The position numbers and the translations under genes are program-made. Shown one piece after another: positions 1,181 to 19,492 of a DNA stretch of 64,000 bases. The stretch spans positions 32,001-96,000 of the IMG/VR virus record IMGVR_UViG_3300029288_000076. The stretch is one strand, 5' to 3'. The first letter of the stretch is position 1. The number at the start of each line of letters is the position of its first letter. The notes under the pieces were generated by a model. It saw only the letters and a list, made by a program, of their open reading frames with translations, was not told where the DNA came from and ran no database searches. Source of the DNA: a virus (lineage: Duplodnaviria > Caudoviricetes).

Positions 1181-1852
1181 CTAATCCAAAGCTTTCATCT
1201 GTTTAAGATGACTAAATAAATCTTCTATATTACTATTAACAGCTTTACTTTTTAATGGCGACGTTTCGGGTACTCTTACTATTTCTTCAGCAATTGATCT
1301 CATCGCCCTAGTAGTAAGGAGCATCCCACGTTTTACATTATAACCATTTACATGATTGTCAAAAACTATATCAGATGATTTTATTTTTGTATCCAAGCTG
1401 TTTAGTTCTTTCAATACTCTATATGAATTATCAATAAACTTTTTATCATTATTAGTTTCATATTGTGGTATATCTCTTACATATTCTTTAAGATATTTTT
1501 TAATTAAATGAGCTTCTTCTGGTATATGACCAAAATCACTTATATCCCAATCATTATTTCTTGCCACTTTAATTAAGGAACCAAATATACAATGAAGACT
1601 TTCTTGTATAGAACTAACGCCAGCGTTGTATTCTGTTTTATTATGATATCCAGCATTAGTTCCTATAGTATCAAACATGCTTTTTCTTAAAGCTAATAAT
1701 TTATCATTTGACTTTGCTTTCTTAACTTTCTCTTTTAATATAGATCCAGCCTTAGTTAATCTAACTTTTTGAAGTTTAGACGACTTATCAGGATTAGGGT
1801 CCTTAAAAGGTGGACTTGGTTCTTTATGCGGTCTTGGTCCTGGAAATGTCAT
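1181..1852 (-). CDS. KEPSPPFKDPNPDK-leader protein 1, C-terminal domain unknown
   Basis: N-terminal 23 aa nearly identical to those of 4305..5087 and 18845..19492. Confidence 0.75.
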   Translation of the reverse strand: MTFPGPRPHKEPSPPFKDPNPDKSSKLQKVRLTKAGSILKEKVKKAKSNDKLLALRKSMFDTIGTNAGYHNKTEYNAGVSSIQESLHCIFGSLIKVARNNDWDISDFGHIPEEAHLIKKYLKEYVRDIPQYETNNDKKFIDNSYRVLKELNSLDTKIKSSDIVFDNHVNGYNVKRGMLLTTRAMRSIAEEIVRVPETSPLKSKAVNSNIEDLFSHLKQMKALD

Positions 1853-2314
1853 CTACTTTCTATCCTTCATAGCATCTTGAGTTTTCAAGCTTAGTTCATT
1901 ATAAGATTTATATAATTCGTTTACTCTATCTTTTTTACCAAGTCCGCTTTCAACTGCCATTTCCCATTGGAGCCTTTTAAGCTCGAGCTGATTTTTTGTT
2001 ATCTCTCTCTGTTTTTTAACTTCATCACGCTGGTCTGGTGGACCAGCTTTATTAGCCTTTTTGTCAGGCTGTTCAATGATCTTTATTCCAGACCCGGAGC
2101 CACCAAGAATTTTATTAGTACTCTTGGTAGGCTCTTTCTTTTTAACACTTTTTGCAACGGTTTTGTTTTTCAAATCTGTTTTCTTAACAACAGGTTTTGC
2201 TTTTTTAATTTGCTTAGTATCAACCTGTTTAATTTTACCTTTAGATCTAAGATCCTTAATAACAGCTTTTTGTTTCTTAAGATTCCTACCAGTTTTTGGT
2301 TTGGAGTTTTTCAT
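1853..2314 (-). CDS. Lys-rich basic protein, candidate internal virion protein
   Basis: Very high Lys content, GGSGSG linker, in the head module. Confidence 0.5.
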   Translation of the reverse strand: MKNSKPKTGRNLKKQKAVIKDLRSKGKIKQVDTKQIKKAKPVVKKTDLKNKTVAKSVKKKEPTKSTNKILGGSGSGIKIIEQPDKKANKAGPPDQRDEVKKQREITKNQLELKRLQWEMAVESGLGKKDRVNELYKSYNELSLKTQDAMKDRK

Positions 2315-2320
2315 AATTTA

Positions 2321-2587
2321 TTACCTTGGATTTATTTTATTTTTTTGATATTTATGTTCAGCTGGATTCCAAATTAAAGGTTGAGGTTTTTTACCAGGAG
2401 ATTTAGCTATTCTTACTAATTTTCTACGAGGATCATTATGGAGCATATTTTTTAATTCTTCTGGAGAATGAATGCTTTCGCCAACTTTAGGTTTGTATTT
2501 TTTAGTTCTTTTAGTAGTAGGCTCCTTCATGCCCTTCCCATTACCCGTACTACCTTTTGGCCATCTCCCAGATCCTGGTCCTCCCAT
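2321..2587 (-). CDS. Basic protein with MGGPGSGRWPKG N-terminus
   Basis: GGPGSG start, a motif I recall from phage head-associated proteins; Lys-rich. Confidence 0.5.
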   Translation of the reverse strand: MGGPGSGRWPKGSTGNGKGMKEPTTKRTKKYKPKVGESIHSPEELKNMLHNDPRRKLVRIAKSPGKKPQPLIWNPAEHKYQKNKINPR

Positions 2588-2600
2588 TGTTATTATCCCC

Positions 2601-2780
2601 TTATCCTTGAACCTTAAACCAAAATTTTTCCAAAGCCCAATACGATGCTCCTACACCACAACTTCCAATCACCCCCATAACTCCAGCAGCAATTCCAAGA
2701 TGCAATATAATTGTAGCACCTACACAAATAGCAGACCATAATGCAGAAAGACTCACGGTTAAAATCAATACTTTTTTCAT
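2601..2780 (-). CDS. Small two-TM membrane protein, possible holin
   Basis: Likely start MKKVLILTV at 2780; two hydrophobic segments. Confidence 0.35.
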   Translation of the reverse strand: MKKVLILTVSLSALWSAICVGATIILHLGIAAGVMGVIGSCGVGASYWALEKFWFKVQG

Positions 2781-2902
2781 TTTCTTACGTTTCTCCTTTT
2801 CTTTTAAAAATAATTGTTCAACTTTATTTACATAACAAATAAAGTACCAGTTAGGTTTACTTCTTGCTTTAAGAGAATTTGCATCTACATCGCCGTCCAA
2901 TT

Positions 2903-3100
2903 TTATTTAGATTTCTTCTTCTGAATCATGGCCAAGAACTTTTCTTTTGCTGCTACCTGTTTAGGTGACATTTTCTTAGAAGCTTTCTTTTTAGTTGTTG
3001 CTTTTTTCTTCTTAGATGTTCCTGCAGGTGGAAACTTATCATCAGGAAATTCAGGTTCAATTTTGTCTATTACTGGAACTTTAGTACTCTTTTTTGCCAT
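2903..3100 (-). CDS. Lys-rich histone-H1-like peptide
   Basis: SKKKKATTKKKASKK tract; AGGAG SD upstream. Confidence 0.55.
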   Translation of the reverse strand: MAKKSTKVPVIDKIEPEFPDDKFPPAGTSKKKKATTKKKASKKMSPKQVAAKEKFLAMIQKKKSK

Positions 3101-3145
3101 TTTAATTTCTCCTTTTTAGTTAAATATTGCTTTATATATTTAGCC

Positions 3146-3301
3146 TTAAATTACCTTTCCGGTATAGAATCTTGTCTTCTGCTTTTTAATATTTTGAGCG
3201 GGAGCCTTCTTAGCTTTAGGAACTTTTGCTGTAATTGTCTTCACTGTTTTTGGTTTAACTATTCTACCGCCAGTAGACTTTTTAGGGACACCTGTTTTCA
3301 T
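3146..3301 (-). CDS. Lys-rich 51-aa peptide (below ORF-track cutoff)
   Basis: MKTGVPKKSTGGRIVKPKTVKTITAKVPKAKKAPAQNIKKQKTRFYTGKVI; starts 4 nt after the adaptor stop. Confidence 0.5.
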   Translation of the reverse strand: MKTGVPKKSTGGRIVKPKTVKTITAKVPKAKKAPAQNIKKQKTRFYTGKVI

Positions 3302-3304
3302 TAT

Positions 3305-3865
3305 TTAACCTCGTTCTAAAGTTGGACCACTTCCAGTATAATCTTTTAAAAGTTCCATAGCTTCTTGACAAAGTCTACTTGCAACAGTTTTATATGAAAA
3401 AGATTCTGAAAGTTTTCCCCCAAGAGATTCCGAATAACTAGAGATTCCTCTACGTTGATTCTGAATATGCTCGTCTGGTTCTGCACTAAGAGACCCTATT
3501 AAATATGCTGCTTGCTGACAAGCAGCGGCTCTTACAGCTAGTCGCTGAAGTTCTTCCTCTTGAGATAATGTTCCTTGAGCAGTAACTGAAAGAGACCAAG
3601 GCCATGAAGAATTTCCACCTATCTTACTTGATCGTGGAAAAGCTAACGCTTGATAATCATATTTTTTATTTCCATGCCAGTGAAAAGCATCAATAGCTTT
3701 TGCAGCTCTTAATAACGATACTTCTTGATCAACAGTCGCAGCTGTGGCCCAAGCTAATCTAATACTAGAACCAAGCACGTTAGTTGCTATGTAAGATGAA
3801 GCATCAGTGACATCAATATATGCTGTAGCTCCAGATGAAGACCATGTAGCATCTATAGCTGTCAT
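3305..3865 (-). CDS. DnaT-like head-tail adaptor/connector protein
   Basis: AYIDVTDASSY...LLRAAKAID...G.K...QALAFPR pattern; C-terminal SYSESLGGKLSESF. Confidence 0.7.
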   Translation of the reverse strand: MTAIDATWSSSGATAYIDVTDASSYIATNVLGSSIRLAWATAATVDQEVSLLRAAKAIDAFHWHGNKKYDYQALAFPRSSKIGGNSSWPWSLSVTAQGTLSQEEELQRLAVRAAACQQAAYLIGSLSAEPDEHIQNQRRGISSYSESLGGKLSESFSYKTVASRLCQEAMELLKDYTGSGPTLERG

Positions 3866-3925
3866 AATTATTTGCCTTTTTCACCTTTAAGTTTCTTCTT
3901 AGAACCTTTTGATTTGCATCCCATC

Positions 3926-4120
3926 TTATTTCTTTACTCCTTTTTTCTTGCTTTTCTTCGAAAGTCCAGCCTCCGACAACGCGATGGCGATTGCCTGCTT
4001 TTGATTTGTCACAACTGGACCTTTTTTACCAGATTTTAATTCCCCAGCTTTCCATTCATTCATGACTTTAGCAACTTTCTTCTGCTTTTTAGTTTTTTCT
4101 TTAGATTTCTTATCAGGCAT
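3926..4120 (-). CDS. DUF6496-like small basic protein
   Basis: KVMNEWKAGELKSG...VTNQKQAIAIALSEAG. Confidence 0.7.
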   Translation of the reverse strand: MPDKKSKEKTKKQKKVAKVMNEWKAGELKSGKKGPVVTNQKQAIAIALSEAGLSKKSKKKGVKK

Positions 4121-4122
4121 TT

Positions 4123-4311
4123 TTATTTTACTCCTTTTCTAACTTTGTTAAACATTATTCCGTTATCGTTTTTATATGATTGTTTAGAATGATCAATGTC
4201 CATATCTTTAATGACTTTTGGTATTCCTTTTGGATAAGCTTTGCAAGTCCAATCACCATAGAAAAACATGCATTTATAACAAATAGGTTCTTTAATTACT
4301 TTCATTACCAA
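4123..4311 (-). CDS. Small CxxC-CKAYPxGIP-H protein (paralogue A)
   Basis: CYKC...CKAYPKGIP...DH...NGIMF; overlaps the stop of the HEXXH gene. Confidence 0.7.
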   Translation of the reverse strand: MVMKVIKEPICYKCMFFYGDWTCKAYPKGIPKVIKDMDIDHSKQSYKNDNGIMFNKVRKGVK

Positions 4312-5087
4312 TTACCTTTTTTCATTAAATCAAGCATTCTTATCATTTTAGGATTAAGTTCGCTTTTAGAAGAACTATTATAAATAGCAAAGTTTTCTGC
4401 TATACATTCAGCCAAATTATATTTTGCTCTATCTGTAATAGCATATTCTTTATAATTTTCTAAATTTCTATCATATTTACCAACACTTTTATCTATTCCA
4501 AGGTAAGTATTTATTCTATCAAAAAATCTATCATTAAAATGTAAATGATGACCCATTTCATGTAATACAGCAGCTTTTGTTTGCGAATATTTGTCTGAAG
4601 GAAAACAAAACATAGAATGAATTCCTCCACTTCCTAATTTACCATTATGATAATTTATATAAAAATTTCTCATTTTATCATTCTTTAAATTAATACCCTT
4701 ATTTGATTTTATTTCTTGATTAGTTCCTATAGCTATTCTGCCAATGTAATCTTCTTCTTCCGATGGTAAATAGGCAGCAAAGTGTCCATTATCAAATCTC
4801 ACTTCTAATAATTTGTATTTCATATGAAATTCTTTCATAGAATCATAAATAGTATTGTTAACTATTTCTATTTGCTTAGAATCATTACATGTACTATAAT
4901 CAACTTGTTTACAAATAGTTTTTTTAGCAAACTCTTCAAGTTTAATTTTATCAATTTTAGTTTTTGCTTTATTTTTTATTCTTTTACCTATTGTAGTGAG
5001 CTTTCTATTGTTAAGTTCTTTATCAGGATTCGGATCCTTAAAAGGTGGTGAAGGTTCTTTTCTTGGACGTGGTCCTGGAAAGCTCAT
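4305..5087 (-). CDS. KEPSPPFKDPNPDK-leader protein 2, zincin-like metallopeptidase
   Basis: Shared leader; HEMGHHLH plus downstream ECIAENF third-ligand motif. Confidence 0.75.
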   Translation of the reverse strand: MSFPGPRPRKEPSPPFKDPNPDKELNNRKLTTIGKRIKNKAKTKIDKIKLEEFAKKTICKQVDYSTCNDSKQIEIVNNTIYDSMKEFHMKYKLLEVRFDNGHFAAYLPSEEEDYIGRIAIGTNQEIKSNKGINLKNDKMRNFYINYHNGKLGSGGIHSMFCFPSDKYSQTKAAVLHEMGHHLHFNDRFFDRINTYLGIDKSVGKYDRNLENYKEYAITDRAKYNLAECIAENFAIYNSSSKSELNPKMIRMLDLMKKGNW

Positions 5088-5091
5088 CTAA

Positions 5092-5322
5092 TTATTCTCC
5101 ATATCTAGCAAGATCTAAATTCTCAAAAGTCTCATAATCTATACACTGCTCTACATCAAATTCATAATTACAGCCATTACATTTATGAAGACAAATTTCA
5201 CATACTATAGGCTTTGTAAGCCATTCACTAGAATATGTCCACTCACCTATTGGAACGATATTATTTGAGTTGCATTCTGGGCATAATGCTTCTTCTTCAT
5301 CTAAAACTACTTTTCTTTTCAT
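5092..5322 (-). CDS. Zn-ribbon protein
   Basis: CPEC...CEIC/CNGC. Confidence 0.5.
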   Translation of the reverse strand: MKRKVVLDEEEALCPECNSNNIVPIGEWTYSSEWLTKPIVCEICLHKCNGCNYEFDVEQCIDYETFENLDLARYGE

Positions 5323-5350
5323 TTTCTTTCCCTTTTAAATATTTTGAATT

Positions 5351-5370
5351 TAATTAAATATAAAGAAAAA
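5351..5370 (-). promoter_or_regulatory. Putative late promoter motif TCTTTATAT (copy 1)
   Basis: Minus-strand TTTCTTTATATTTAATTAAA, identical to the copy at 19511-19530. Confidence 0.55.
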
Positions 5371-6081
5371 TCAGGCACTTATAAGTTTTTAAAAAAAATG
5401 GACAACCCCTATTTGTGAGTTGCCCAATGTACATGGAGGTAAAGAATGAGAAGAGAAAGTGCATTGTTAATCTTTAAGCCAGAAGAAATTTCCTAAGAAT
5501 AGAATATCAAACTCCCATTCACATTCATCTTTGCAAATATAGAAAAGTGAATATGAATTACCTTTAATATCAAAAGTAATAAGGTCCAAAACAAAGAAAT
5601 TTTTCCAAACATCAAATGAAAATAAATCAAAACCAAATACATGATCCATTTTTAATCCCCCATAAAAATTAGTTTTTCAACAGGCTCCAACTAATATGCT
5701 CAGTATGATCTAAATCATAAGGAGCGTGCTCTCCAGGCTGATAAACAGTACACCTCCAAATAGCCCCACAACTTCTACATTTATAATCAATTTCTTTAGT
5801 ACCGCTTTGATGAATAATTTTGTTTCCTGTGGGGATCAAAGACTCAATACTATTTTTGCAAGTTGGGCAACTCATTATTTCACCTCTTTATTTACTAAAA
5901 TTTTATACAAATTATAACAAATAGCTATACCAGTAAAAGAAATAAAACAAATAGCACTATTTGATAATGAGTCAAAAGCGCTTTTAAAATGAAAAGGAAA
6001 ATCAAGTATAGAAGATAAAATAAGAATAGAAAAAACAAATTTATTAAAATGAAAATAGCTGCTATCGTACACCGTTTCATA

Positions 6082-6690
6082 TTAATATAACCATTTTGGT
6101 TTCATAAAATCTTTGTTAAAATTCCATAAAATCATTGGATTAATAGTTCTATTATTTATTTTTACTCCATAATGAACATGATTTCCAGTACTACGTCCAG
6201 TACTTCCCATTTCGCCTATTATTTGATTTTTCTTTATTTCATCTCCAACATTAACTAATCTTTTTCTCATGTGACCATAGATAGTTGTATAATACCCATG
6301 ATTAATCTCTATGTACTCACCATAGCCTCTTTTTGATTCTGAATAAACTACTATCCCAGGAGCTGTTGCTCGTATAATAGTTCCAGCTTTATTTGCTATG
6401 TCATAACCATCGTGAAACTCAGGCCACGGTTTTTTCCTATACCCATAACCACTTGTAAAATAACCTTCACAAGGATAATCAGTTGGTATTAGTTTGGCAA
6501 ATTCTATAGCTGCTAACTGATATTCAATAAAATATGATGTATTTCTATTTCTAATGTTGTAGAATTTATTAGCTTCTTCTTCTAAAGTATAACCAAAACT
6601 ATTTTCCACCCATACCGCCAGAAACATTATTAGTATCACCGCTAAAGTGTATTTTACCATTGTTTTCATAGAAATAATTATCACTCCCAA
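6082..6690 (-). CDS. M23 family peptidoglycan endopeptidase with N-terminal TM/signal
   Basis: HDGYD, YGHM, GSTGRSTGNHVHY. Confidence 0.9.
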   Translation of the reverse strand: MGVIIISMKTMVKYTLAVILIMFLAVWVENSFGYTLEEEANKFYNIRNRNTSYFIEYQLAAIEFAKLIPTDYPCEGYFTSGYGYRKKPWPEFHDGYDIANKAGTIIRATAPGIVVYSESKRGYGEYIEINHGYYTTIYGHMRKRLVNVGDEIKKNQIIGEMGSTGRSTGNHVHYGVKINNRTINPMILWNFNKDFMKPKWLY

Positions 6691-7258
6691 CAGACTTCAA
6701 TAATTCAGAAGTCAAAAGGATCATAGTATAAATTTCTGTTTCTTTTACCTTGATCATTTTCTTTAAGTTTTCAATTTCAAGATCTTTTACTTTTATAATT
6801 GATTCTAGTTCAAATTTTTCTTGTTCTAATTTAGAAACCCTATCTTGCAGTCTAATTTTTTCAGTATCATTTTCTAATTCGGCCTTTCTCGTTTCATAAG
6901 CTATATTAACTTTAGTTGTATAATATCTATCTGTATCTGCTTTAAAAAAAATATATGGCATTATGATATACAAAAATGCCCATGTTAAAAGTAAAAGAAC
7001 AAAAATAGTAAGACCGAACCAGGTCCATTTTTGAGGATATGTATTAAAATGGTTCTTAAGTTTCTTCTTATAAGATAAAAAACATTTCTTTATCTTAGTT
7101 ATCAAAGGAACTTTTTTGGTATCAATTACTTTATCTTTTACTATGGTTTCTGTAGATATTTCTTTAGTTTTAACAGTTTTATTCAAAATAGGTTTAGTCT
7201 CCTTTTTCTCAATAATCGGAGTATTCTCAATTTTATTTTTGGGTCTGCCTCTAGGCAT
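6599..7258 (-). CDS. Membrane protein: AT-hook-like N-terminus, TM helix, coiled coil
   Basis: MPRGRPK start; WTWFGLTIFVLLLLTWAFLYII; heptad-rich C-terminus. Confidence 0.5.
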   Translation of the reverse strand: MPRGRPKNKIENTPIIEKKETKPILNKTVKTKEISTETIVKDKVIDTKKVPLITKIKKCFLSYKKKLKNHFNTYPQKWTWFGLTIFVLLLLTWAFLYIIMPYIFFKADTDRYYTTKVNIAYETRKAELENDTEKIRLQDRVSKLEQEKFELESIIKVKDLEIENLKKMIKVKETEIYTMILLTSELLKSVGSDNYFYENNGKIHFSGDTNNVSGGMGGK

Positions 7259-7262
7259 AATA

Positions 7263-7649
7263 TCACTCCATATTTGCTTCTTCTTTAGACAAATAATCTT
7301 GTATTATTTGTAACCACTTTTTGAATGTTCGTACCTTAATAGTCATTGATTCCCTATCTGGCCCAGTATTGATTCTTGTTGAAAGCATACCTGATAGTAC
7401 ATCCGCAAGCATATCTTGACGTAGTTTAAGAAATTCTTCATCTATTTTAATATGTTTCTTTTGTTTTTCTTTTTTAACTTCTTTTTCAGGAACTATAGAC
7501 GTTTCTATTGTAATTTCTGCAGGAAGTTCTGTTACAACTGGATTATCTACTGAGAGAACATCTTCATTCTCTATCTTAATAGTTTGCTTCCCCAAAATAT
7601 TGTCAATAGCATCTGCTCCTGTTTCTACTTTTTTAGGTGGTCGTCCCAT
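7263..7649 (-). CDS. Hypothetical protein with GRPPKK N-terminus
   Basis: ORF track; GGAGG SD upstream. Confidence 0.5.
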   Translation of the reverse strand: MGRPPKKVETGADAIDNILGKQTIKIENEDVLSVDNPVVTELPAEITIETSIVPEKEVKKEKQKKHIKIDEEFLKLRQDMLADVLSGMLSTRINTGPDRESMTIKVRTFKKWLQIIQDYLSKEEANME

Positions 7650-8603
7650 TCTTACTTTTCCTCCTTCTTAAAATCTTTTGGATTGATTTTGTATTTAGGT
7701 TTTATTTCTGTTTTAGAAACTTTAGGCTTTACTCTATTCTTTCTTTTTATGGTTCTTTGTATACTACTCATTTTTAAACCTCAACTACAATGTCGTACTT
7801 ATTATCTTTATCTGTTGGATTATAATTATATGGTCTTCCAAATCCTACAACAACTTTTGTTAAGCAATTTGGACAGGCATACATGTCACCAGACATATCA
7901 TAAATACTAACTTTTTGTTTTTTATCAAAGAATCTGACTACAAAACCATTCTTTTCACAAGTCATCTCCTTATCACACATTACACATATTGGCCGTTGCA
8001 TAATTAAACCTATAATATATATTATATTTTAAAAAATAGATTTTAGGATCTTGTACTTATCCACCACTCCCATCTTCAAAAGAAATATAGTCAGTTCTAC
8101 ATTTTATAGAACAACACCAAACATGTGTTATCTTATCATAATAACCTTTAACGTCATTTGGAAATTCTTTATAACACACTCCACAAATATTAGTTTTTGG
8201 AAACAAAATTTCAATAGCATCATTAATTGCAGATTGATAACTCATTTTTGAAATAATATCTTCAGCTTTAAAGTTATCAAATTCTTTAAATATAGAATGT
8301 CTTTCTTCTTTCTTTTTAGTCATTAAATCAAGAAAAGTTTTCTTATCTATCATCTGCTACTCCTTGAATGAAATACTTCTTCTGAGGGGTCATGGTTAGA
8401 AAGACCTGCCTGTTCAAAATGAGGAATAGATAACTTATCATTAGATCTCTGATGCGTTATTGGTTGAAATATTTTTCTATACTTAGAAGCCATTCTTGTA
8501 GTAGGCTCTTTCTTATTTAACTCACACCAATCAAGAAAGTGTTTGTTAGTTTTGGCAAATTTGGCATTAGACATTCTCTTTTCGGTAATAATTTCTTTCT
8601 CTT

Positions 8604-9830
8604 TCATTTAATTAGCTCCTTATACAAATCTATTAATCTCCCAATCTGGTTCTCCATAGATAACAAATTTCTAACTTTCATTAAGTTAGATCTTTTTTCT
8701 AAGTATTCTTCATAGGCATAATTTCTAATATCATTAATATCTTTTAAAGTAAAACCAATATCATATTGGTCAATTATCTTTCCAACTTCGCTATTTTTAT
8801 TTCCTATACTTGGAACTCCAGCAGCAACTGCATCAAAAAGCTTGTTAAATATTCCCCACTTAATCTGGCGACAAATAATTCCACCAGGATCTGGGTAAAA
8901 AGCTAAACTGAAATGAAACTTTGTCATCTCTTTTATTAGTGAGAAGTATTCAACAAATCCACCGTATTTAACATCAAGATTTTTATAATACTCAACTGCT
9001 TCTTTAACATCAGGAATATAAAAAGTCAATGGTAAATGTTTATCTTGAAAAGACTTAGCAACGGAAGTCATATCTCTATAAGGAAGAGCTTGAGCCGTTT
9101 GTGAATTAGGATGAACAGCTGAACCTTGGAAAATATAACTAAGAGTATACTCTTTTTCTATAGCATGCCATTCTCCACGAGTTCCTATATTAGTTATATA
9201 ATCATATGGCTTAATAGGACCTTCGTCAATATAAAAACACTGTGGCATTGCTGACATTAATGAAATAGATTTTTCAGATTCATAAGCATCATCAAAACAT
9301 TCTTTAATTGGATTGCTAACGTGTATAAAAGCATCTGAACATTGAACTGCTTTTATTTCATCATCTACTATTCTTCCGGTCCTAATTAGTTCTGAATCAT
9401 GGACATCAAACACAACTTTAATATTCCAATCACTTGAAAATTCTTTTCTAACTTCATCGGCATACCACCCAAGATAATAAGGCTCGTTATGCCAATGAAG
9501 AATTACTTTTTTATTTTGCTGACCCAAAATAAGAGTTTTTAAAATACGTTTTAATTGTGACACTTCAAAATAGGGGATGTACATTTCAAGATGTGGCATT
9601 ATAGAAGCAACAATTCCTTGAAATGTATAGTAGCCGACAATAATTACTTTGTATCCTTTATAGAGCAGAGGAATAGCTTCTTTGATTACTCTTGAACAAC
9701 AATGATAACTAATCATTATAACTAATGGTAGATCGGGATTTGTTTCAAATTCCCTTGGCCTAATTTTTGTTGGATCAAGAGGATGAAGAATAGGAACTGA
9801 AAAATCAGCATTAGGATTAATTTCTACCAT
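8604..9830 (-). CDS. GT-B (GT4-like) glycosyltransferase
   Basis: HWHNEP, VVFDVHD, AFIHVS, NKLFDAVAAGVPSIG. Confidence 0.75.
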   Translation of the reverse strand: MVEINPNADFSVPILHPLDPTKIRPREFETNPDLPLVIMISYHCCSRVIKEAIPLLYKGYKVIIVGYYTFQGIVASIMPHLEMYIPYFEVSQLKRILKTLILGQQNKKVILHWHNEPYYLGWYADEVRKEFSSDWNIKVVFDVHDSELIRTGRIVDDEIKAVQCSDAFIHVSNPIKECFDDAYESEKSISLMSAMPQCFYIDEGPIKPYDYITNIGTRGEWHAIEKEYTLSYIFQGSAVHPNSQTAQALPYRDMTSVAKSFQDKHLPLTFYIPDVKEAVEYYKNLDVKYGGFVEYFSLIKEMTKFHFSLAFYPDPGGIICRQIKWGIFNKLFDAVAAGVPSIGNKNSEVGKIIDQYDIGFTLKDINDIRNYAYEEYLEKRSNLMKVRNLLSMENQIGRLIDLYKELIK

Positions 9831-11694: not shown

Positions 11695-13104
11695 CTAAAA
11701 TCCTTGATAATCTTCAATCCATTTTTCAGAAACCCAATCAATTAGCTTATCTTGTTCATATGAAGAAGGACCTAATTTTCTTTCTACTGCATCTATATAG
11801 CAACTAAATTTTCCATCTTTAATTTCATAACACCATTCTGGAATATTATATTCGTCTAATTTGTCTTTATTTTCTGCCGCCAAGGCAGTGTCAATAGCAA
11901 TTGTTGGGAGTTTATTTTCATCATTAAAATCACTTATAATTTTCAACCAATCAAATTTAAATGGTTTAAAGTTACAACCCCTTCCTACTCCTTTAGCACC
12001 CAAAAGTGTTAATTTAATCCCTTCACTTTTACAAGCATTTAATAAAAATTTAAAGTTATATTCATCTACAATTCCAACGATATGCTGCAAAGAAATTTTA
12101 AGTGAGTTTTTAAAATATTTATCTTTTGCAACTGATTTTAGTATTTCTGCCACATCTATAACATCAGTAACTTTAATAGCGGAAAACGCTACTCCGCCCA
12201 GCATACTCCAAATTTTATGATTTGATGGATGTTCTTTAAGCCATTTTATATTTTTAGTTGAAAAATTTGGAATCATGTGATTATAATAGATATCTTCTAC
12301 GATTTCATCAAAATCAGGGTGAAATGTTGGTTCACCACCACCTATAGCAATCTCAAATATTTTTGCTTTTGAAAGCTTATATAAAATATCATATATGTCT
12401 TTTTTCTTGGCATGTTTTCCGTTTTGAGAAGAGCTTTGATAACAAAAATCACATTCATAAGGGCAATAATCAGTAATTTTTAAATCAACAAGCTCAGGTG
12501 TAGAAGCTTTTATATAATTTTCTTCAAGATTATCAAAAGAAAATCTTATTTTTGCTCCAGTTTTTCTATTAAAAAGAACCCAAAATTTACCATCCTTTTT
12601 AGCAACTAATCTATGATCATACCAATCATTAAAAAGAGGATTTATATTTTTATAACCATTTTCTATTAATTGATGCATTCCATCATTATCATTTCCTCCA
12701 AGAATAGCTACATTTTCCATTGAAATAAAATTTTTTAGATCTTTTATAAACTCTATATTAACTCCTTTTTCTTCCCAATCATATGGAATAGACCAAACAG
12801 ATTGGTGATCAACTCCTTCCCAATAACTATCTTCATCAGAGTCTGAAATAATAGTATTCCCAATTAATTGCTTGATAATAGTTTTTGCTGTTTCTTTACC
12901 GAATCTACGTTCTAATTCTGAATATAGGTTTTGGGCTAAATATTTCATTTTTGATTCTAAATCAATTAATGTAAATGATTCCCAGCCAAATGAACCATAC
13001 ATAGGATCATTTTTGATCTTATTTTTATTTTTGTTAAAGAAGATTATGGAATGAGAAGAGCTACTATTTGTAGCAAAACCTAATCTGATACTTTGTATTT
13101 TCAT
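11695..13104 (-). CDS. Radical SAM protein with N-terminal RLGFATNSSSS domain
   Basis: CPYECDFC (CxxxCxxC) and IAIGGGEPT. Confidence 0.85.
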   Translation of the reverse strand: MKIQSIRLGFATNSSSSHSIIFFNKNKNKIKNDPMYGSFGWESFTLIDLESKMKYLAQNLYSELERRFGKETAKTIIKQLIGNTIISDSDEDSYWEGVDHQSVWSIPYDWEEKGVNIEFIKDLKNFISMENVAILGGNDNDGMHQLIENGYKNINPLFNDWYDHRLVAKKDGKFWVLFNRKTGAKIRFSFDNLEENYIKASTPELVDLKITDYCPYECDFCYQSSSQNGKHAKKKDIYDILYKLSKAKIFEIAIGGGEPTFHPDFDEIVEDIYYNHMIPNFSTKNIKWLKEHPSNHKIWSMLGGVAFSAIKVTDVIDVAEILKSVAKDKYFKNSLKISLQHIVGIVDEYNFKFLLNACKSEGIKLTLLGAKGVGRGCNFKPFKFDWLKIISDFNDENKLPTIAIDTALAAENKDKLDEYNIPEWCYEIKDGKFSCYIDAVERKLGPSSYEQDKLIDWVSEKWIEDYQGF

Positions 13105-13123
13105 TACAAAATCCTATTAAATA

Positions 13124-13633
13124 TTAAATATACCATTTTTTATCATACATTTTTTGTTCCCTTTCGCGTGCTTGTTCTTTAAGATATCTCTGATATTTTC
13201 TGTCTAAAATTGGGTTAATTGATTTATTAAATTCTATTTCATAAGCATAATGGTCTTTGACAACTTTTGGATTTAAAATTATTTTATCACAATGTTTTCT
13301 ATAAAAATCTTCGGTTGACATAAAGATTAACTTAGAATTATTAGGGAATTGAATTTTACTATCTTTAAATGAATAATTTGTTTCTTTTATTTTAAAAAAC
13401 CATAATAATTTTCTTACTTTTCCTACTTCAAACATTTGTAAAGCCACTTCATAAAAATGTTTTGCAGCTTCGTGATTGTGAGTTAAGTAGAAACATTGTT
13501 TATTTTTATTTTTCAAACAATATTCAATACACTCTAAAATAGCTTTAGTACTTTTTCCTAGTGTGCGCTCATTATAGATAAAAACTTTTTTAGTAGTAAA
13601 GAAGCTTTTAATTTTCTTGAATAATCTTACCAT
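13124..13633 (-). CDS. Small P-loop-like protein resembling a terminase ATPase N-terminal fragment
   Basis: ERTLGKST Walker-A-like motif; IQFPNNSKLIFMS. Confidence 0.4.
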   Translation of the reverse strand: MVRLFKKIKSFFTTKKVFIYNERTLGKSTKAILECIEYCLKNKNKQCFYLTHNHEAAKHFYEVALQMFEVGKVRKLLWFFKIKETNYSFKDSKIQFPNNSKLIFMSTEDFYRKHCDKIILNPKVVKDHYAYEIEFNKSINPILDRKYQRYLKEQAREREQKMYDKKWYI

Positions 13634-13721
13634 TTTTCATTCTCTAAATAAATTTGTTATACAAAGTCAAAAATTATCTTATCTTCTTATAATATTATAT
13701 TTTATAAAAATGATCTTACAA

Positions 13722-13764
13722 ATAAAAAAATAAAGGCTATAGAAATTATTTTTCTATAGCCTTT
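13722..13764 (-). terminator. Intrinsic terminator after the capsid/decoration operon
   Basis: 14-bp perfect inverted repeat 13732-13745/13751-13764, followed by a U tract on the minus strand. Confidence 0.8.
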
Positions 13765-13800
13765 TAATTTTTACATCATCCTAATCTTTATAATTAGGAT

Positions 13801-14175
13801 TTATGAGCCAACTGTGCCAGCGGCAATCCAGCTAATAGTTATAGCTGTTGAGCCCGCCACTAGCGTAGGATCTGAACCTGAATAGTTTTGCCATGCATAA
13901 ATTCTAACAACTCCTCCAGAATGGCTGCCATAACTAAACGTATATGGCTCATCTCCGGGAGCATCGGTTCTTATAAGAGATGCATGAATATGGACCAGCG
14001 ATGTAATATCAGTTGTAACATCAAGTGATCCAGTAACTCCAACTGTTCCGGTTCCCCAAGCAAAAACTCCATTAAAAGTAGTAGCCTGGGTAAAGTTATT
14101 TAACCCTATTTCGTTAGCAATGGGACACATTCCACTGATTCTATCAAAATCTTCAGCAGTAACTTTTGTTGGCAT
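13801..14175 (-). CDS. Capsid decoration protein (paralogue 2)
   Basis: Ala/Gly/Thr-rich beta protein downstream of the MCP; ends ISWIAAGTVGS. Confidence 0.6.
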   Translation of the reverse strand: MPTKVTAEDFDRISGMCPIANEIGLNNFTQATTFNGVFAWGTGTVGVTGSLDVTTDITSLVHIHASLIRTDAPGDEPYTFSYGSHSGGVVRIYAWQNYSGSDPTLVAGSTAITISWIAAGTVGS

Positions 14176-14184
14176 ATTTATCTC

Positions 14185-14562
14185 CTATGAGCCAACCGTT
14201 CCTATGGCTAACCACGATATATCAATTGAAGCTGTACCGGCAATAAGTGTAGGATCTGAACCTGACGTATTACACCATGCATAGATTCTAACAACGCCAG
14301 CAGTATGGGTTCCATAACTAAAGGTATATGGACCATCACCAGGACTAGTTGATTTAATCAGAGAAGCCTCTATGTGAATGAGAGAAGTGATTCCAGTTGT
14401 AACATCAAGTGATCCAGTTGTCCCAAGTACTCCCGCTCCCCAAGCTACTAATCCATTAAAAGTCGTGGCCTGAGTAAAGTTTCCTAATCCTACTTCGTTA
14501 GCAATAGGGCACATCGCATTGGCTTTACCTCGCGTTTCAGCGGTTATTTTAGTTGCAGCCAT
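14185..14562 (-). CDS. Capsid decoration protein (paralogue 1)
   Basis: Directly after the MCP; highly similar to 13801..14175. Confidence 0.6.
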   Translation of the reverse strand: MAATKITAETRGKANAMCPIANEVGLGNFTQATTFNGLVAWGAGVLGTTGSLDVTTGITSLIHIEASLIKSTSPGDGPYTFSYGTHTAGVVRIYAWCNTSGSDPTLIAGTASIDISWLAIGTVGS

Positions 14563-14589
14563 TTTTAATCCTCCTTAGCCCTATTGTTA

Positions 14590-15723
14590 TTACCCATAAA
14601 TCCTTGCCATTGTAGAAGCTCCGCGAACCTCAGCGGTATACTCACCAATAATAGAACCAGCTTTGTAGTCACCAGTTTTGGCTTTTTCTTGGAAGTGGAA
14701 GCTTCTGTTGCGGAGAGGCACAGGTTTAACCCTATTAGAGGCAATCAAGAACAAGTTAGAAGCAGGCATCCACCTATTGAGTACAATACGAATAGGATTG
14801 CTCATGAAAGTAGAGGCATATTCCCAAACTTGCTTCTCATATTTGGTTTCGCTATTCACAACTCTGATATGAGTTTCTTGCCAACCATCGATAATCCTTT
14901 TATATGCGGCATCGCAAACAAGAACATCAATATCATCAGCACCAGCAGACCAACAAGCATTAATAGCAGAATCAAGAAGAGATGTGGTAAGAGTAGCTCC
15001 GGATCCAACAGTGTAAATGTTTGTGGAAATAAGAGAAATCAGACCATTCATAACACGAGGAACAGTAGAACTTCCGATAGTGCCAACAGCAGTAGAGTAC
15101 TTACCAAGAATCATAGCAGACTCAAGATCAATCATCGCCTCTTTGGTCTTTTTGAGTTTTTCGTACTCGAAAGCATCGGCATACCCAATAGCATTAACAG
15201 CTCTCATAGTTTCAGAAACACTAAAGTCGCGTTTAAATATCTGCACATAGTTTCCAGTTCTGCTTGGATTTCTCTGAGTAGCTTGTTCAATGTCGGAACC
15301 TTCAAGAGCAGCCATACCAACAACATAGAGCGTATTACCCGCACCGAGCGAGCTAGCAGTAGTACCTTGAGACGCTCTCTTAACAGTCAAGGTATTAGTA
15401 GAAGTAGACACAATAATCATGTACTCATTAGTCACTGAAGACATGAGCACATCTCCCCACTGCAGGAACCCAGCCTCACTCCCTCTAATTGAGAAAGAAT
15501 AGGTTGTAGAAGCATCAGACGTAATGGCGGTAGAGTTAATAACACTATGAGGCATATATTTGTCCTCAAGCCATTCATGATAAGTCTGTGTTGCAGCAGC
15601 AGCGGGAATTCCTAAGAGATCGAGCAATGGCACAACAGAAGGCGAGAGCATAGTAATAGTATCGCTAACGTCCTCATAGACACCATCATATCGATCATAC
15701 TGAGCAAGACCTGTAAAAGACAT
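14590..15723 (-). CDS. Major capsid protein (DUF5309/SU10-like HK97 fold)
   Basis: EDVSDTI..LSP...P, HEWLED, NYVQIF, AKTGD..GSIIGEYT; located after the scaffold. Confidence 0.9.
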   Translation of the reverse strand: MSFTGLAQYDRYDGVYEDVSDTITMLSPSVVPLLDLLGIPAAAATQTYHEWLEDKYMPHSVINSTAITSDASTTYSFSIRGSEAGFLQWGDVLMSSVTNEYMIIVSTSTNTLTVKRASQGTTASSLGAGNTLYVVGMAALEGSDIEQATQRNPSRTGNYVQIFKRDFSVSETMRAVNAIGYADAFEYEKLKKTKEAMIDLESAMILGKYSTAVGTIGSSTVPRVMNGLISLISTNIYTVGSGATLTTSLLDSAINACWSAGADDIDVLVCDAAYKRIIDGWQETHIRVVNSETKYEKQVWEYASTFMSNPIRIVLNRWMPASNLFLIASNRVKPVPLRNRSFHFQEKAKTGDYKAGSIIGEYTAEVRGASTMARIYG

Positions 15724-15742
15724 ATTTAAAAGAACCTCCTTT

Positions 15743-16642
15743 TTACTTTATGGCTCCAGAAGCTTTAGCGGCTTTTTCTGCATCTTGTAAAAGTTTTCTT
15801 GCTTTCATATACTCAAGTTGTGACATATCATTATTAGGATTGATGCCAGCTTCCTCTTTAGCTTTTTCAAAGTTCTTTCTAAGCGTATTAAGACGGTCAA
15901 CTTCTTTAGAAACCGCACCTTTCCCACCTGATCCAGCACCTGGAGTATACGAAACGAAAAACTCTTCTTTTAGCGTATTTATAATACCGTCTCTAAGATC
16001 GATATCTGCACCGCTGTCAAACTTTCTAAAGAGCCATTTACGATCAATTTCATCATATACAACATGTTTACGTAACAATTCAGCCGATTCCTCCATGAGG
16101 TGCGGCTTTACATTAGCAGAGACAAGAGCTTGGTTAAGAATATCAGACTTTTTAGTTTCAAAAACTTCTTGTTTAGCCTCTTCGGTTTGCTTTTCAAGAT
16201 CAATTACTCTCTTTTCATAATCCGTGAGGCGTTTTTCATAACGTAGTTTCATGGTGTTTCTTGCAGCTTCGACAGCATCTTTAATGTCTTTCTTTTTCTT
16301 CGGGATTGTTTTAGACTTATCTTCATCTTCCAAATCTTCATCCTCCTCTCCAATATCTTCATCCTCGAAGAATTCCTCTTCAGCAGTGTCATCAACTATG
16401 ATACCATAAAGATCATCATTCTTTTCTTTAACACTAGCAAGCGTTTTAGCCATTTCATCAAGTTTGTCGCGCAAAAGTTTATTTTCTTCTTTTGTTTCGC
16501 GCTTGTCTTTGGCAATCATGCGATTAACGTCTTCATCAGTGTACTTCGGAACTTTTGTGGGATCTTCTTGAGAAGCTTGACAATGCTCACAAACAGTACT
16601 GTCATCTGCAATTTCCTTTCCACACTTGATACAATTCTTCAT
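15743..16642 (-). CDS. Capsid scaffolding protein with N-terminal zinc ribbon
   Basis: CIKC/CEHC, YTDEDVNRMI, acidic coiled coil, GAGSGG; directly upstream of the MCP. Confidence 0.75.
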   Translation of the reverse strand: MKNCIKCGKEIADDSTVCEHCQASQEDPTKVPKYTDEDVNRMIAKDKRETKEENKLLRDKLDEMAKTLASVKEKNDDLYGIIVDDTAEEEFFEDEDIGEEDEDLEDEDKSKTIPKKKKDIKDAVEAARNTMKLRYEKRLTDYEKRVIDLEKQTEEAKQEVFETKKSDILNQALVSANVKPHLMEESAELLRKHVVYDEIDRKWLFRKFDSGADIDLRDGIINTLKEEFFVSYTPGAGSGGKGAVSKEVDRLNTLRKNFEKAKEEAGINPNNDMSQLEYMKARKLLQDAEKAAKASGAIK

Positions 16643-16780
16643 AAACTCTAACTCCTTTCCCAGTTATTAAGGATCTGGCAACCTATAAAACCCCCGATAA
16701 ACCTTCGGGCAGGTCAAATTTGTCCCTGGGGTCTTCTCCCAGCAGGCTATTAAGAACTAAAATAGTAAAAGTTTTATTAT

Positions 16781-16800
16781 TTTTATTATAATATAAAGAG
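16781..16800 (-). promoter_or_regulatory. Putative late promoter (copy 2), upstream of scaffold/MCP
   Basis: Minus-strand CTCTTTATATTATAATAAAA. Confidence 0.5.
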
Positions 16801-16832
16801 ATTAAATAAAAATATAAGTATAGAAAAATTCA

Positions 16833-17096
16833 TTACCAAATCTTTTTTGGACGACCTTTCTTATTAGTTTCTTCGCGCTCATCTGCAACTTCATAAGAAG
16901 TTTTTTCATCAAAAGAAACAGTATAAGATTTCTTTTCCTCAAAGACATACGGCCTATCAGACTGCATCCATGGAGTATCATGAATAAGATCTCCATCTGC
17001 AATTGGCTTAGGTATTCCATCTGGATAAGCTTTGCAAAAAGTATCTTTTTTGTACCATTTGCACTTTTTACAATAATTTTCAATCCCTTCTTGCAT
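16833..17096 (-). CDS. Small CxxC-CKAYPxGIP-H protein (paralogue B)
   Basis: Likely ATG at 17096 with AGGAG SD; CKKC...CKAYPDGIP...IH. Confidence 0.7.
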   Translation of the reverse strand: MQEGIENYCKKCKWYKKDTFCKAYPDGIPKPIADGDLIHDTPWMQSDRPYVFEEKKSYTVSFDEKTSYEVADEREETNKKGRPKKIW

Positions 17097-17106
17097 AATA
17101 AAACTC

Positions 17107-18777
17107 CTATTCGTTATAATATTTTGATAAATCTTCTTCAGTTGGTTCTTCATTCCAACCTTGATCTTGCGGATTTATTTCATTTCCTTCTTCATCAAGA
17201 TTACTCATATCCCAAGGGCTTTGAATTGCTTGACCAGGTTTTGCTTGAGCTTCATCTATTTCTTCTTCAATAGTCTTCATAGCATCTGGATCAACATCTG
17301 GGAGCATCTTCTTAACAACACCTTTTTCAATATTTTTAATTGCAGTTTCAGAAGTTAACGCTTCTCTGGCAGAAAGTAATATATTTAATTCATCAGTTAA
17401 ATTATAAATATCGAAATCGTCAGGATAGCTAATAGATCCTTTCCACGGTGTATTTGCCCATAAACCTACAAATCTGCAAAGAGCATCCTCGCAATCTTGA
17501 AGAGCATCAGCCTTAGCTGAAATAGCATTATTAGTCTCATTAAATATACGTGCCAATGCTATGCCTGATGGACTTGTTTGTTCTTCAACGGCAACTCCAC
17601 CCTTAAGCTTTACTATCTTTAATATAGTGTCTTTTTCATCTTTTATATTTGCCCTGAGATTAGCTGCAGGTTCAGAAGTTGGAGCCATAAATTCAGGTGG
17701 TCCTGCTCCTTCAACTGGAGTATAAGCTAATACATTTCCTTCAGACAATGTAAATGTGTTTGGCATGTCCGGCCAAGCTGCTATTCTTAGAATATTAAGT
17801 GCTTTATTGTGAAGCTCTTCGTCCAATAGACTTGTCCAACGTAAAATAGCTTTACAAACACCAGCAATATCTTGGACTAGAGCAATACCTATGTCTTGAT
17901 ATTTAAAAGAACTTTTATTTTTTAATCTATAAACTGGAACAATACCAAGATTATGAGCTCCTCCACCAACTTTAATTACATCTTTTGATTTAGGATCAAT
18001 TTTGTGCTTTACCCATTCTTTCTTCGTCCATGTCACATAATAATAAGACTCATCAGTAATTTCTTCTGGTTCAAGTTTATATGGGTCTTCAAAATCTTCT
18101 ATATACTCTCTAAAACGTAACCATATAAATTCACCATTGGCATCCATTGACCAGTTAATACAATTTTCAGGAGTATATGCAATGGCATATGATTTCGCTT
18201 CCATACCATCAGCTATTTGTTCTGCAGAAGGTCTATCAACTAATATATCTACATACCCAAATATTTGACGAAGTTTGTCAGCATCAATCATGAACTTCTT
18301 TATTGGACGTTTCTTGCCATCGCTATTTTCCCAAAATTCATCAAAGACGTTTCTTTGACCAACATTAAGAACTTCTTTTACTTTTTTAACTGTTTTTTCT
18401 ACAACACCTTTTGCTTCTGTTTTTGATTGTCGAGTAATTGGTTTGCGGAAAATAAATTCAGTAAATAGATCAACAATAGGAGCGACAAGGTTTACATAAT
18501 AAGCTCTAGCTCTACGCTTTCTAATAGCATCATCAGATTCGCGAGTATGCTGAAGAATATAAGACATCACATCTATACCTTCATATAGATTTATATATTC
18601 ATCCCACATAGGTTTGAATTTGCTATACATCCAATGGCGCGCAGTAAGCTGCTCAACGGTTGGAACTATATTTAGAATAGAATCAGGAGGAGCATCTCCT
18701 GGCTCATACATAGTCTGCGGTTGCGGAGTAGCAACTTTATTAATAGGAAAGTTTTTAGGGTCGAATGTTTCTGTCAC
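17107..18777 (-). CDS. Portal protein (SPP1 gp6-like)
   Basis: RRARAYYVNL...IFRKP, HNLGIVPV, SGIAL, ISYPDDF, acidic tail. Confidence 0.9.
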   Translation of the reverse strand: MTETFDPKNFPINKVATPQPQTMYEPGDAPPDSILNIVPTVEQLTARHWMYSKFKPMWDEYINLYEGIDVMSYILQHTRESDDAIRKRRARAYYVNLVAPIVDLFTEFIFRKPITRQSKTEAKGVVEKTVKKVKEVLNVGQRNVFDEFWENSDGKKRPIKKFMIDADKLRQIFGYVDILVDRPSAEQIADGMEAKSYAIAYTPENCINWSMDANGEFIWLRFREYIEDFEDPYKLEPEEITDESYYYVTWTKKEWVKHKIDPKSKDVIKVGGGAHNLGIVPVYRLKNKSSFKYQDIGIALVQDIAGVCKAILRWTSLLDEELHNKALNILRIAAWPDMPNTFTLSEGNVLAYTPVEGAGPPEFMAPTSEPAANLRANIKDEKDTILKIVKLKGGVAVEEQTSPSGIALARIFNETNNAISAKADALQDCEDALCRFVGLWANTPWKGSISYPDDFDIYNLTDELNILLSAREALTSETAIKNIEKGVVKKMLPDVDPDAMKTIEEEIDEAQAKPGQAIQSPWDMSNLDEEGNEINPQDQGWNEEPTEEDLSKYYNE

Positions 18778-18810
18778 ATATTTACCTGTTAGAAAAAATT
18801 TTATAATTTA

Positions 18811-18828
18811 TTATTATATAAAGAGAAA
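18811..18828 (-). promoter_or_regulatory. Putative late promoter (copy 3), upstream of portal
   Basis: Minus-strand TTTCTCTTTATATAATAA. Confidence 0.5.
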
Positions 18829-18844
18829 TTCTTTGATTATAAGT

Positions 18845-19492
18845 TTAATCAACAACTCTACATTCAATAATATCTTTTTTAATTTTATCGTAATCAACGA
18901 TTTTGAATTTTGTATTTCTTGGGAGTAAAACTTCTGCTTCATTTTTAAAAGAAGATATAGAAGATATATCACAACCTTTTTGACCTTTTTTTACATATAT
19001 TTTCATTAAAATTCCATTGCCATAAAAATAGTTTTTCATAAAAGATCTTCTAAATTTCTCAAAGTTATTGCTAGTAGACACAAAAGCTTTATCTGTAAAA
19101 GTAGGTGTGAGAGTTTTATAAAAATTTGATTTTTCACTTCCTGAAAAGCGTATTAATCTATACAGAGTGGCATCTGATTTAAGTTTTCTTGATGTTATTT
19201 TGTCTAGACCGAACTTAATTTTTTCATATATTGGGTCTAATATTTTTCCTTCTCTTAAAAGTTCATTTATGTTTAATCCAGGACCACCCATATATGAAGA
19301 TACAGCTTTTTTCTCTTCATCATTAAAAACTGTTTTTTCTTTAACTTTCTTCCTTAAACTTTCTCCAATTTTTGTTAACTTAACTATTTTCTTTCCTGAT
19401 TTTAAAGCAGAAACAGCCTTAGCTTTATCTGGATTTGGATCCTTAAAAGGTGGACTAGGTTCTTTACGTTCTCTTGGGCCTTTCCAGCTCAT
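18845..19492 (-). CDS. KEPSPPFKDPNPDK-leader protein 3, R-S-E class (VIP2/Alt-like) ADP-ribosyltransferase
   Basis: Shared leader; LYR, FVSTS and EAEVLLPRNTKF catalytic motifs; YMG...NINELLR helix. Confidence 0.9.
   Translation of the reverse strand: MSWKGPRERKEPSPPFKDPNPDKAKAVSALKSGKKIVKLTKIGESLRKKVKEKTVFNDEEKKAVSSYMGGPGLNINELLREGKILDPIYEKIKFGLDKITSRKLKSDATLYRLIRFSGSEKSNFYKTLTPTFTDKAFVSTSNNFEKFRRSFMKNYFYGNGILMKIYVKKGQKGCDISSISSFKNEAEVLLPRNTKFKIVDYDKIKKDIIECRVVD

Follow-up and report, generated by a model that had tools for sequence, protein, structure and literature searches.

Phages inject a few proteins along with their DNA and, to our knowledge, the choice of such cargo in phages other than T4 is largely unexplained. 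Here, we describe a short N-terminal leader that is shared by otherwise dissimilar proteins of an uncultured tailed phage (Duplodnaviria; Caudoviricetes), as encountered in a stretch of 64,000 nucleotides (the window; bases 32001-96000 of the 186,386-bp IMG/VR virus record IMGVR_UViG_3300029288_000076) and subsequently followed through the whole of that genome. The leader heads 15 genes, with two further genes carrying a variant of it, and the proteins to which it is attached include ADP-ribosyltransferases (ARTs) and zincins. Sequence comparisons support the view that it represents a portable module, selected at the peptide level and carried by interchangeable enzymes of the virion arm, and we lean towards a role as an address signal by which accessory effectors are loaded into the virion for injection.

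A preliminary description of the window had proposed that three of its genes share a leader and a second block before diverging. The three open reading frames (P0001, P0002 and P0003; Table 1), the motif and the divergence were all confirmed. In each protein, the opening pattern M-(S/T)-(F/W)-x-G-P-R-x-x leads into the invariant 14-mer KEPSPPFKDPNPDK and, after a short spacer, a second block of the form (K/R)-L-T-x-x-G-x-x-(L/I)-(K/R)-x-K-x-K, while beyond approximately residue 50 the three are unrelated and mutually unalignable. A six-frame scan of the window identified these three occurrences of the leader motif and no others. As had been remarked at the outset, the invariant residues are specified by different synonymous codons: the three genes differ at six of the 14 codons, and every change is synonymous.

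To define the family across the genome, a hidden Markov model of the leader was run over all open reading frames, which extended what had been taken for a family of three to 15 member genes. Additionally, two genes were found in which the first block is different (starting M-G-G-E-G-S-G-W) and the second block is the same. All 17 tagged genes are on the minus strand and map to genome positions 2977-51492, within the virion arm (genome 0-51.5 kb), with none in the remaining 135 kb, and they encode proteins of 172-344 amino acids (aa) with one cargo domain each. The leader motif begins at residue 2-5 in every tagged protein of this phage. The module measures 45-55 aa overall, and ~54 aa in most copies owing to an extra conserved spacer between the blocks, unlike P0001 and P0002, which represent short-spacer forms. 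Block 1 consists of ~23 residues and is Pro-rich with the core G-P-R ... E-P-S-P-P-(F/Y), while block 2 is a basic, helix-prone K-L-T-K-x-G-x-x-L-K-K-K segment and the most widely shared element over all tag subtypes; the net charge of the leader ranges from +7 to +13.

In the 14-residue core of the 12 canonical copies, the pooled proportion of synonymous differences (pS) was 0.64 and that of nonsynonymous differences (pN) was 0.07, no pair of copies had a pS of 0, and serine was found to be encoded by AGY and TCN codons alike. The high pS, low pN and mixed Ser codons indicate that the copies are old and that the peptide is under purifying selection, which bears out the initial suggestion that selection acts on the peptide. 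Amino-acid identity in block 1 averages 0.86; related cargo domains are 23-40% identical and most cargo pairs display no detectable similarity.

The cargo of the 17 tagged proteins comprises eight C3-type ARTs, three DRAT-like ARTs, one weakly ART-PolyVal-like protein, three HExxH zincins, one GNAT-like protein and one helical protein (P0001). All eight ADPrib_exo_Tox matches of the genome, as well as its DRAT match, fall in tagged genes. P0003, correctly recognised beforehand as an R-S-E ART, matches the Pfam family ADPrib_exo_Tox (PF03496) at 7e-20 (71.5 bits, the cut-off being 23.4), retains the catalytic motifs Y-R, S-T-S and E-A-E (E-x-E), and has C3, SpvB and Vip2 as its nearest solved structures. 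One of the DRAT-like genes was identified by Pfam and the other two are paralogues bearing its R...S...E motifs, while the ART-PolyVal match of P0007 is below threshold and the GNAT-like assignment, which concerns a variant-leader gene, is weak. The reading of P0002 as an HExxH zincin gained support from an HEMGH motif and a conserved downstream Glu, common to its two paralogues, from Atlas feature scores of 0.93-0.96 (ATLF-like clusters included) and from template modelling (TM) scores of 0.58-0.66 to the C-termini of MuF fusions, but not from any sequence match in Pfam or the PDB. No family was found for P0001, and single-sequence AlphaFold2 models of P0001 and P0007 (predicted local distance difference test, pLDDT, 43 and 36, respectively) were too poor for a fold search. 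Neither a MuF domain in the tagged proteins nor a match to DUF4417 (PF14386) anywhere in the 186-kb genome was detected.

Catalytic residues are intact in nearly all copies of the cargo enzymes. Among the ARTs, the residue two positions before the catalytic Glu varies, being E, Q, H or L; this residue sets target-residue specificity, as in C3-type versus C2/Vip2-type ARTs. Seven of the eight ADPrib_exo_Tox ARTs are uninterrupted, and the eighth, a variant-leader ART (L010:8163-9979(-), genome 22163-23979), is split by a TnpB-like transposase gene (phrog_506, 1e-37). Its C-terminal fragment, at genome 22193-22378, corresponds to Pfam profile positions 133-192, beyond the TnpB-like insertion.

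Homologues of the cargo occur elsewhere as parts of fusion proteins. Among cultured phages, the P0003 ART domain finds its closest homologue at the C-terminus of gp4 of Pseudomonas phage Orisa03, a fusion of portal and ART (Phage_portal_3, 1e-80; ADPrib_exo_Tox, 5e-19). P0003 furthermore has matches to PHROG profiles of MuF-type and virion proteins, within their C-terminal part. Similarly, the P0002 zincin structurally resembles the C-terminal part of MuF-family proteins of 509-521 aa. In other phages, the same enzymes are thus physically attached to head-interior proteins.

The tagged genes are scattered along the whole virion arm, among tail genes as well as head genes, and the confinement to a head module that was initially proposed does not hold, as members also lie beside the tape-measure and tail-terminator genes. 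Most of them begin within a few bases of the preceding stop codon, as do two of the three window genes (1-5 nt past it). The upstream regions of the three window genes share nothing beyond chance, and the late-promoter motif that two of them had been thought to have in common was not substantiated, the best 14-mer matches being equal to those of shuffled controls. The head gene set (portal, stand-alone MuF, scaffold-like protein and capsid protein) is SPP1-like. While the statement that no MuF gene is visible is accurate for the window, a stand-alone MuF gene (Phage_min_cap2, 2.6e-13; 366 aa; genome 19518-20618, L010:5518-6618(-)) is present outside it, in the middle of the effector cluster, and independence of MuF is thus not shown. 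This gene is positioned between two tagged ARTs and ~30 kb from the portal gene, which it abuts in the nearest cultured relatives. Bacillota siphoviruses, where MuF sits beside the portal, have capsid and MuF proteins that share 25-31% identity with the ones encoded here. Searches for Peptidase_S78 and ClpP prohead proteases gave no match while their controls were positive, and that for S77 also gave none, its control likewise being silent. A Glu follows block 2 in only five of 12 copies and the leader contains no conserved cleavage motif, and the analogy with a cleaved, T4-like leader is not supported.

A profile search of 1.8 billion representative proteins returned 19 hits, which belonged mostly to this genome, the others being in a syntenic relative (assembly GCA_024449895.1) and in one unrelated 660-aa protein (P0017). 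In a relative from IMG/VR (L013/G001), the MuF protein shows 76% identity and the backbone genes, which keep the same order, 50-83%; this phage carries ~12 tagged genes with a tag version of its own and different cargo in equivalent slots, cargo having been exchanged in the manner of cassettes. Its tag is internally homogeneous (M-S-N-P-G-P-R ... E-P-A-P-P-N-R-K-P) and likewise subject to purifying selection (pS 0.36, pN 0.03), and one copy of this version is present in the genome studied here. In the relative, the gene after MuF (L013:11083-11688(+)) opens with a stub of six leader residues (S-W-S-G-P-R), joined in frame to the conserved gene that comes next, in the slot that is occupied in our phage by the tagged ART beside MuF; the stub marks an effector cassette that has been lost. 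Two relatives at a greater distance, with MuF proteins 29-33% identical, display the same backbone order with no tagged genes near MuF, indicating that the arsenal is an accessory, lineage-specific insertion set. Comparison of the leader with 50,697 phage records by tblastn yielded chance hits only, blastn of the head genes produced no match, and a MuF scan of genome contigs revealed no relative. Apart from this genome, IMG/VR yielded no match to the leader pattern or to a degenerate W-x-G-P-R ... E-P-x-P-P-(Y/F) DNA pattern.

P0017 (L012:88-2070(+)) is encoded on an unrelated 3-kb metagenome contig and contains the block-1 motif (W-x-G-P-R-P-V-G-E-P-x-P-P-Y-R) twice internally, as well as the C-terminal sequence G-H-A-G-R-P-G-K-R-G-G-S, which suggests that block 1 is one of a broader group of short linear motifs lying at the boundaries of effector domains. 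A literature search for the G-R-P-G-type motif returned nothing relevant, and the motif does not appear in the polyvalent-protein paper (PMC5512222). Small virion-arm proteins with AT-hook-like or Gly-rich basic N-termini (P-R-G-R-P-K, G-R-P-P-K-K and G-G-P-G-S-G-R-W) are encoded in the window at 6599-7258(-), 7263-7649(-) and 2321-2587(-); the last of these motifs resembles both the variant 'type E' leader and the G-S-G ... G-R-P-G motif with which P0017 ends.

If the leader is a loading signal, it would recruit effector enzymes into the assembling virion, with which they would enter the next host together with the DNA. In this case, the tag would make a covalent link unnecessary and would instead dock, non-covalently, to a head-interior component (MuF, the portal, the scaffold or the packaged DNA) as its putative receptor, binding to DNA through the basic helix being a possible route, and a single loading route would be common to 15-17 interchangeable enzymes. 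Cleavage is not expected, and the mature protein probably retains its tag. The original proposal of peptide-tagged packaging and injection of interchangeable enzymes consequently stands, shorn of the claim to independence of MuF, as the best reading of the comparative evidence. As a more tentative step, one on which we would not yet rely, the ensemble might be regarded as a 'split polyvalent protein' system, in which a bipartite tag of 45-55 aa, not described before, replaces covalent fusion to portal or MuF, no protease is employed, more than 15 interchangeable enzymes, of which at least 11 are ARTs whose specificity loops have diversified, are loaded into a large siphovirus-type particle, and tag and receptor are matched in a lineage-specific manner.

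Several observations weigh against a loading function. Its support is comparative only, and the leader's basic charge carries little weight since the phage is AT-rich and its entire proteome is Lys-rich. With neither a prohead protease nor a conserved cut site found, processing of the T4 type is unlikely. Members are interspersed not only with tail genes but also with non-structural ones (glycosyltransferase, metallophosphatase and TnpB), and location alone is therefore no proof of virion association. Moreover, the nucleotide and translated searches above identified no cultured relative, the tag resembles neither the T4 and P1 signals nor any structure in the PDB, and the internal pair of block-1 motifs in P0017 would also fit a domain-boundary or processing motif. 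A complex prediction from leader and MuF alignments, run without controls, scored 0.00; it counts neither for nor against binding.

The module may alternatively be an intracellular targeting domain, acting in the new host or in the producer, that directs the enzymes to DNA or the nucleoid via the basic helix, or to a host hub protein via the Pro-rich block, with no packaging signal being involved. We regard this as unlikely, if worth keeping in view: the tag has a high basic charge (+7 to +13 over 55 aa) and is modelled as a coil followed by a helix, the element most widely shared across subtypes is block 2, and the retention of the tag at the extreme N-terminus, together with the lack of a cleavage motif or detected prohead protease, implies that it is probably present on the mature enzyme. 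Such a domain leaves unexplained, however, why all members are confined to the virion arm and why homologous cargo is fused to portal or MuF proteins elsewhere. Nor does it account for closely related phages, whose hosts are presumably similar, each maintaining a homogenised tag of its own, and to have ARTs, zincins and a GNAT-like enzyme all converge on one host site seems less economical. Targeting and packaging are in any case compatible, as binding to DNA could itself load the cargo.

Less probable again is a pro-region or processing signal, whereby the enzymes would be inactive, or a cut site marked, until removal by the phage's own zincin or a host protease. The presence of three tagged zincins in the set, the two internal block-1 motifs of P0017 ahead of separate regions and the proposal that zincins process polyvalent proteins (PMC5512222) are in keeping with this idea; against it, the motif is placed at residue 2-5 in every protein here with nothing upstream to release, neither block is followed by an invariant acidic or small-residue cut site, the zincins are themselves tagged, and there are no polyproteins in this phage. 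We give very little credence to the notion that the shared N-terminus is a functionless remnant of recent duplication or gene conversion among paralogues. While the genes do form clusters and there are paralogues among the cargo domains, the synonymous sites of the leader are near saturation with a nearly invariant peptide, the leader heads cargo without detectable similarity (ART, zincin and the helical P0001), and the pattern recurs with a different tag version in the relative; recent gene conversion as the source of the leader likeness was ruled out by pS and pN in both phages. Two further candidates were set aside, namely a leader of the type found in ribosomally synthesised and post-translationally modified peptides (RiPPs) for the nearby radical-SAM enzyme, as the tagged genes encode full-size enzymes and extend over 50 kb, and a secretion signal, as the leader is without a hydrophobic segment.

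Among known systems, the proteins of T4 that bear a capsid targeting sequence (CTS) are loaded into the head and injected. The internal proteins of T-even phages are diverse and have the CTS alone in common (PMC3012670). The T4 CTS (on IPI, IPII, IPIII and Alt) thus resembles the leader in being a short N-terminal signal on a diverse, fast-evolving set of proteins that includes an ART (Alt), and diverse cargo that shares only a tag and is encoded with virion genes was also found here. In contrast, the CTS comprises ~10 residues of unrelated sequence and is removed by the gp21 prohead protease, whereas the leader is 45-55 aa long and bipartite with no protease detected; neither a ~10-residue CTS of T-even consensus nor removal at an (L/I)-x-E site was apparent. 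Additionally, the head genes are SPP1-like rather than T4-like, and with 15-17 genes, most of them for ARTs, the set exceeds that of T4.

ART and metallopeptidase domains are also found on MuF toxins, which are followed by small open reading frames (PMC5576092, Jamet et al. 2017). Together with the polyvalent fusions of portal and MuF proteins (PMC5512222, Iyer et al. 2017), they share with the tagged set ART, zincin and ART-PolyVal-like cargo, and the MuF toxins resemble it further in combining a conserved delivery part with polymorphic C-terminal domains and in the small reading frames after some toxin genes, to which the small Cys-rich open reading frames after four of the 17 tagged genes correspond. 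They differ in that MuF and toxin form one polypeptide, while here a separate 366-aa MuF protein and the tagged effectors are products of separate genes (hence 'split'), and in having one effector per genome as opposed to many; polyvalent proteins possess at least two effector domains per polypeptide in place of the single cargo domain seen here. For P1 DarB, the N-terminal 30 residues direct a reporter into capsids, the signal being longer than 9 and at most 30 residues (PMC9024508). DarB is similar in having an N-terminal loading segment, its cargo being an anti-defence enzyme, and dissimilar in that the signal occurs on a single cargo, incorporation needs other Dar proteins and there is no sequence likeness to the tag. 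By analogy, the tag system may represent the logic of the T4 CTS, P1 DarB and MuF toxins in a new form, the defining features of each being only partly present.

Table 1. Tagged genes, their leaders and neighbouring virion-arm genes in the window (window coordinates).
Feature	Position	Strand	Remarks
P0003, 215 aa, tagged C3/Vip2-type ADP-ribosyltransferase	18845..19492	-	First virion-arm gene, directly upstream of portal gene
P0003 leader, residues 1-54: Pro-rich block 1, spacer, basic block 2; net charge +11	19331..19492	-	
P0002, 260 aa, tagged HExxH zincin (probable; HEMGH + downstream Glu); 2 tagged paralogues outside the window	4305..5087	-	
P0002 leader, ~44 residues, short-spacer form	4956..5087	-	
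P0001, 223 aa, tagged; all-helical cargo domain, no assigned function	1181..1852	-	Model pLDDT 43; no family
P0001 leader, ~47 residues, short-spacer form	1712..1852	-	
Portal protein, candidate docking site	17107..18777	-	phrog_145, 2e-49
299-aa protein between portal and capsid genes; scaffold-like by position only; N-terminal zinc-ribbon-like motif	15743..16642	-	No family above threshold
Major head protein	14590..15723	-	phrog_1328, 1.5e-64
Head-tail adaptor, between P0002 and P0001	3305..3865	-	phrog_477, 3.5e-14
Head-closure-like / HNH-like protein directly downstream of P0001	341..1177	-	
62-aa Cys-rich ORF (C-x2-C ... C ... YPKGIP ... DH), overlaps P0002 end	4123..4311	-	No Pfam family
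106-aa Cys-rich paralogue between portal and scaffold-like gene	16833..17153	-	

In order of transcription, the arm starts with P0003, followed by the genes for the portal, the 106-aa Cys-rich protein, the 299-aa scaffold-like protein and the major head protein, and by many small genes, among which are a radical-SAM gene, an M23 peptidase, the adaptor and the head-closure-like gene. Beyond the window it continues with the MuF-family gene, a tail-terminator-like gene, a 985-aa glycosyltransferase-methyltransferase and a 1154-aa tape-measure protein. The Cys-rich proteins form a set of five paralogues of 55-106 aa with the zinc-binding-looking motif C-x2-C ... C-x2-(F/Y)-P-(K/D)-G-I-P ... D-H, three of which are encoded outside the window (L009:2792-2974(-), L010:13212-13379(-) and L010:15463-15642(-)). 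Four of the five genes are located directly downstream of tagged genes, i.e. all three zincins and P0007; no Pfam family was identified for them and they were not found in a 21-kb stretch of the relative. They may represent candidate immunity proteins or loading chaperones.

Additional features of the arm include a 469-aa radical-SAM protein in the middle of the head block (window 11695-13104(-); Radical_SAM, 4e-10; phrog_16999, 4e-32) and tandem paralogues of ~125 aa directly after the major head protein gene (13801-14175(-) and 14185-14562(-)), which have no family match and may be decoration proteins. Between the genes for head and connector lies one for a Peptidase_M23 domain protein (6082-6690(-), 7e-30), a possible cell-wall hydrolase of the virion. 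In the tail part of the arm, the 985-aa protein (L009:11208-14165(-)) is a glycosyltransferase-methyltransferase-glycosyltransferase fusion and is kept in all relatives examined, including those without tagged genes.

With 11-12 ARTs that differ in their (E/Q/H/L)-x-E loops, this phage far exceeds the three of T4, which suggests that the arsenal serves a broad, multi-target takeover of the host or an anti-defence activity. If the leader is indeed a loading signal, it would define a new, protease-free packaging route in SPP1-like heads, would explain how covalent MuF or portal toxins can be unbundled into a large arsenal, and would offer a compact handle for putting foreign proteins into phage particles; the tag-receptor pair would then constitute a new portable protein-packaging module. 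The clade represents a natural experiment in this respect, with one conserved tag on many cargo types, a lineage-specific version of it, and relatives that lack the system.

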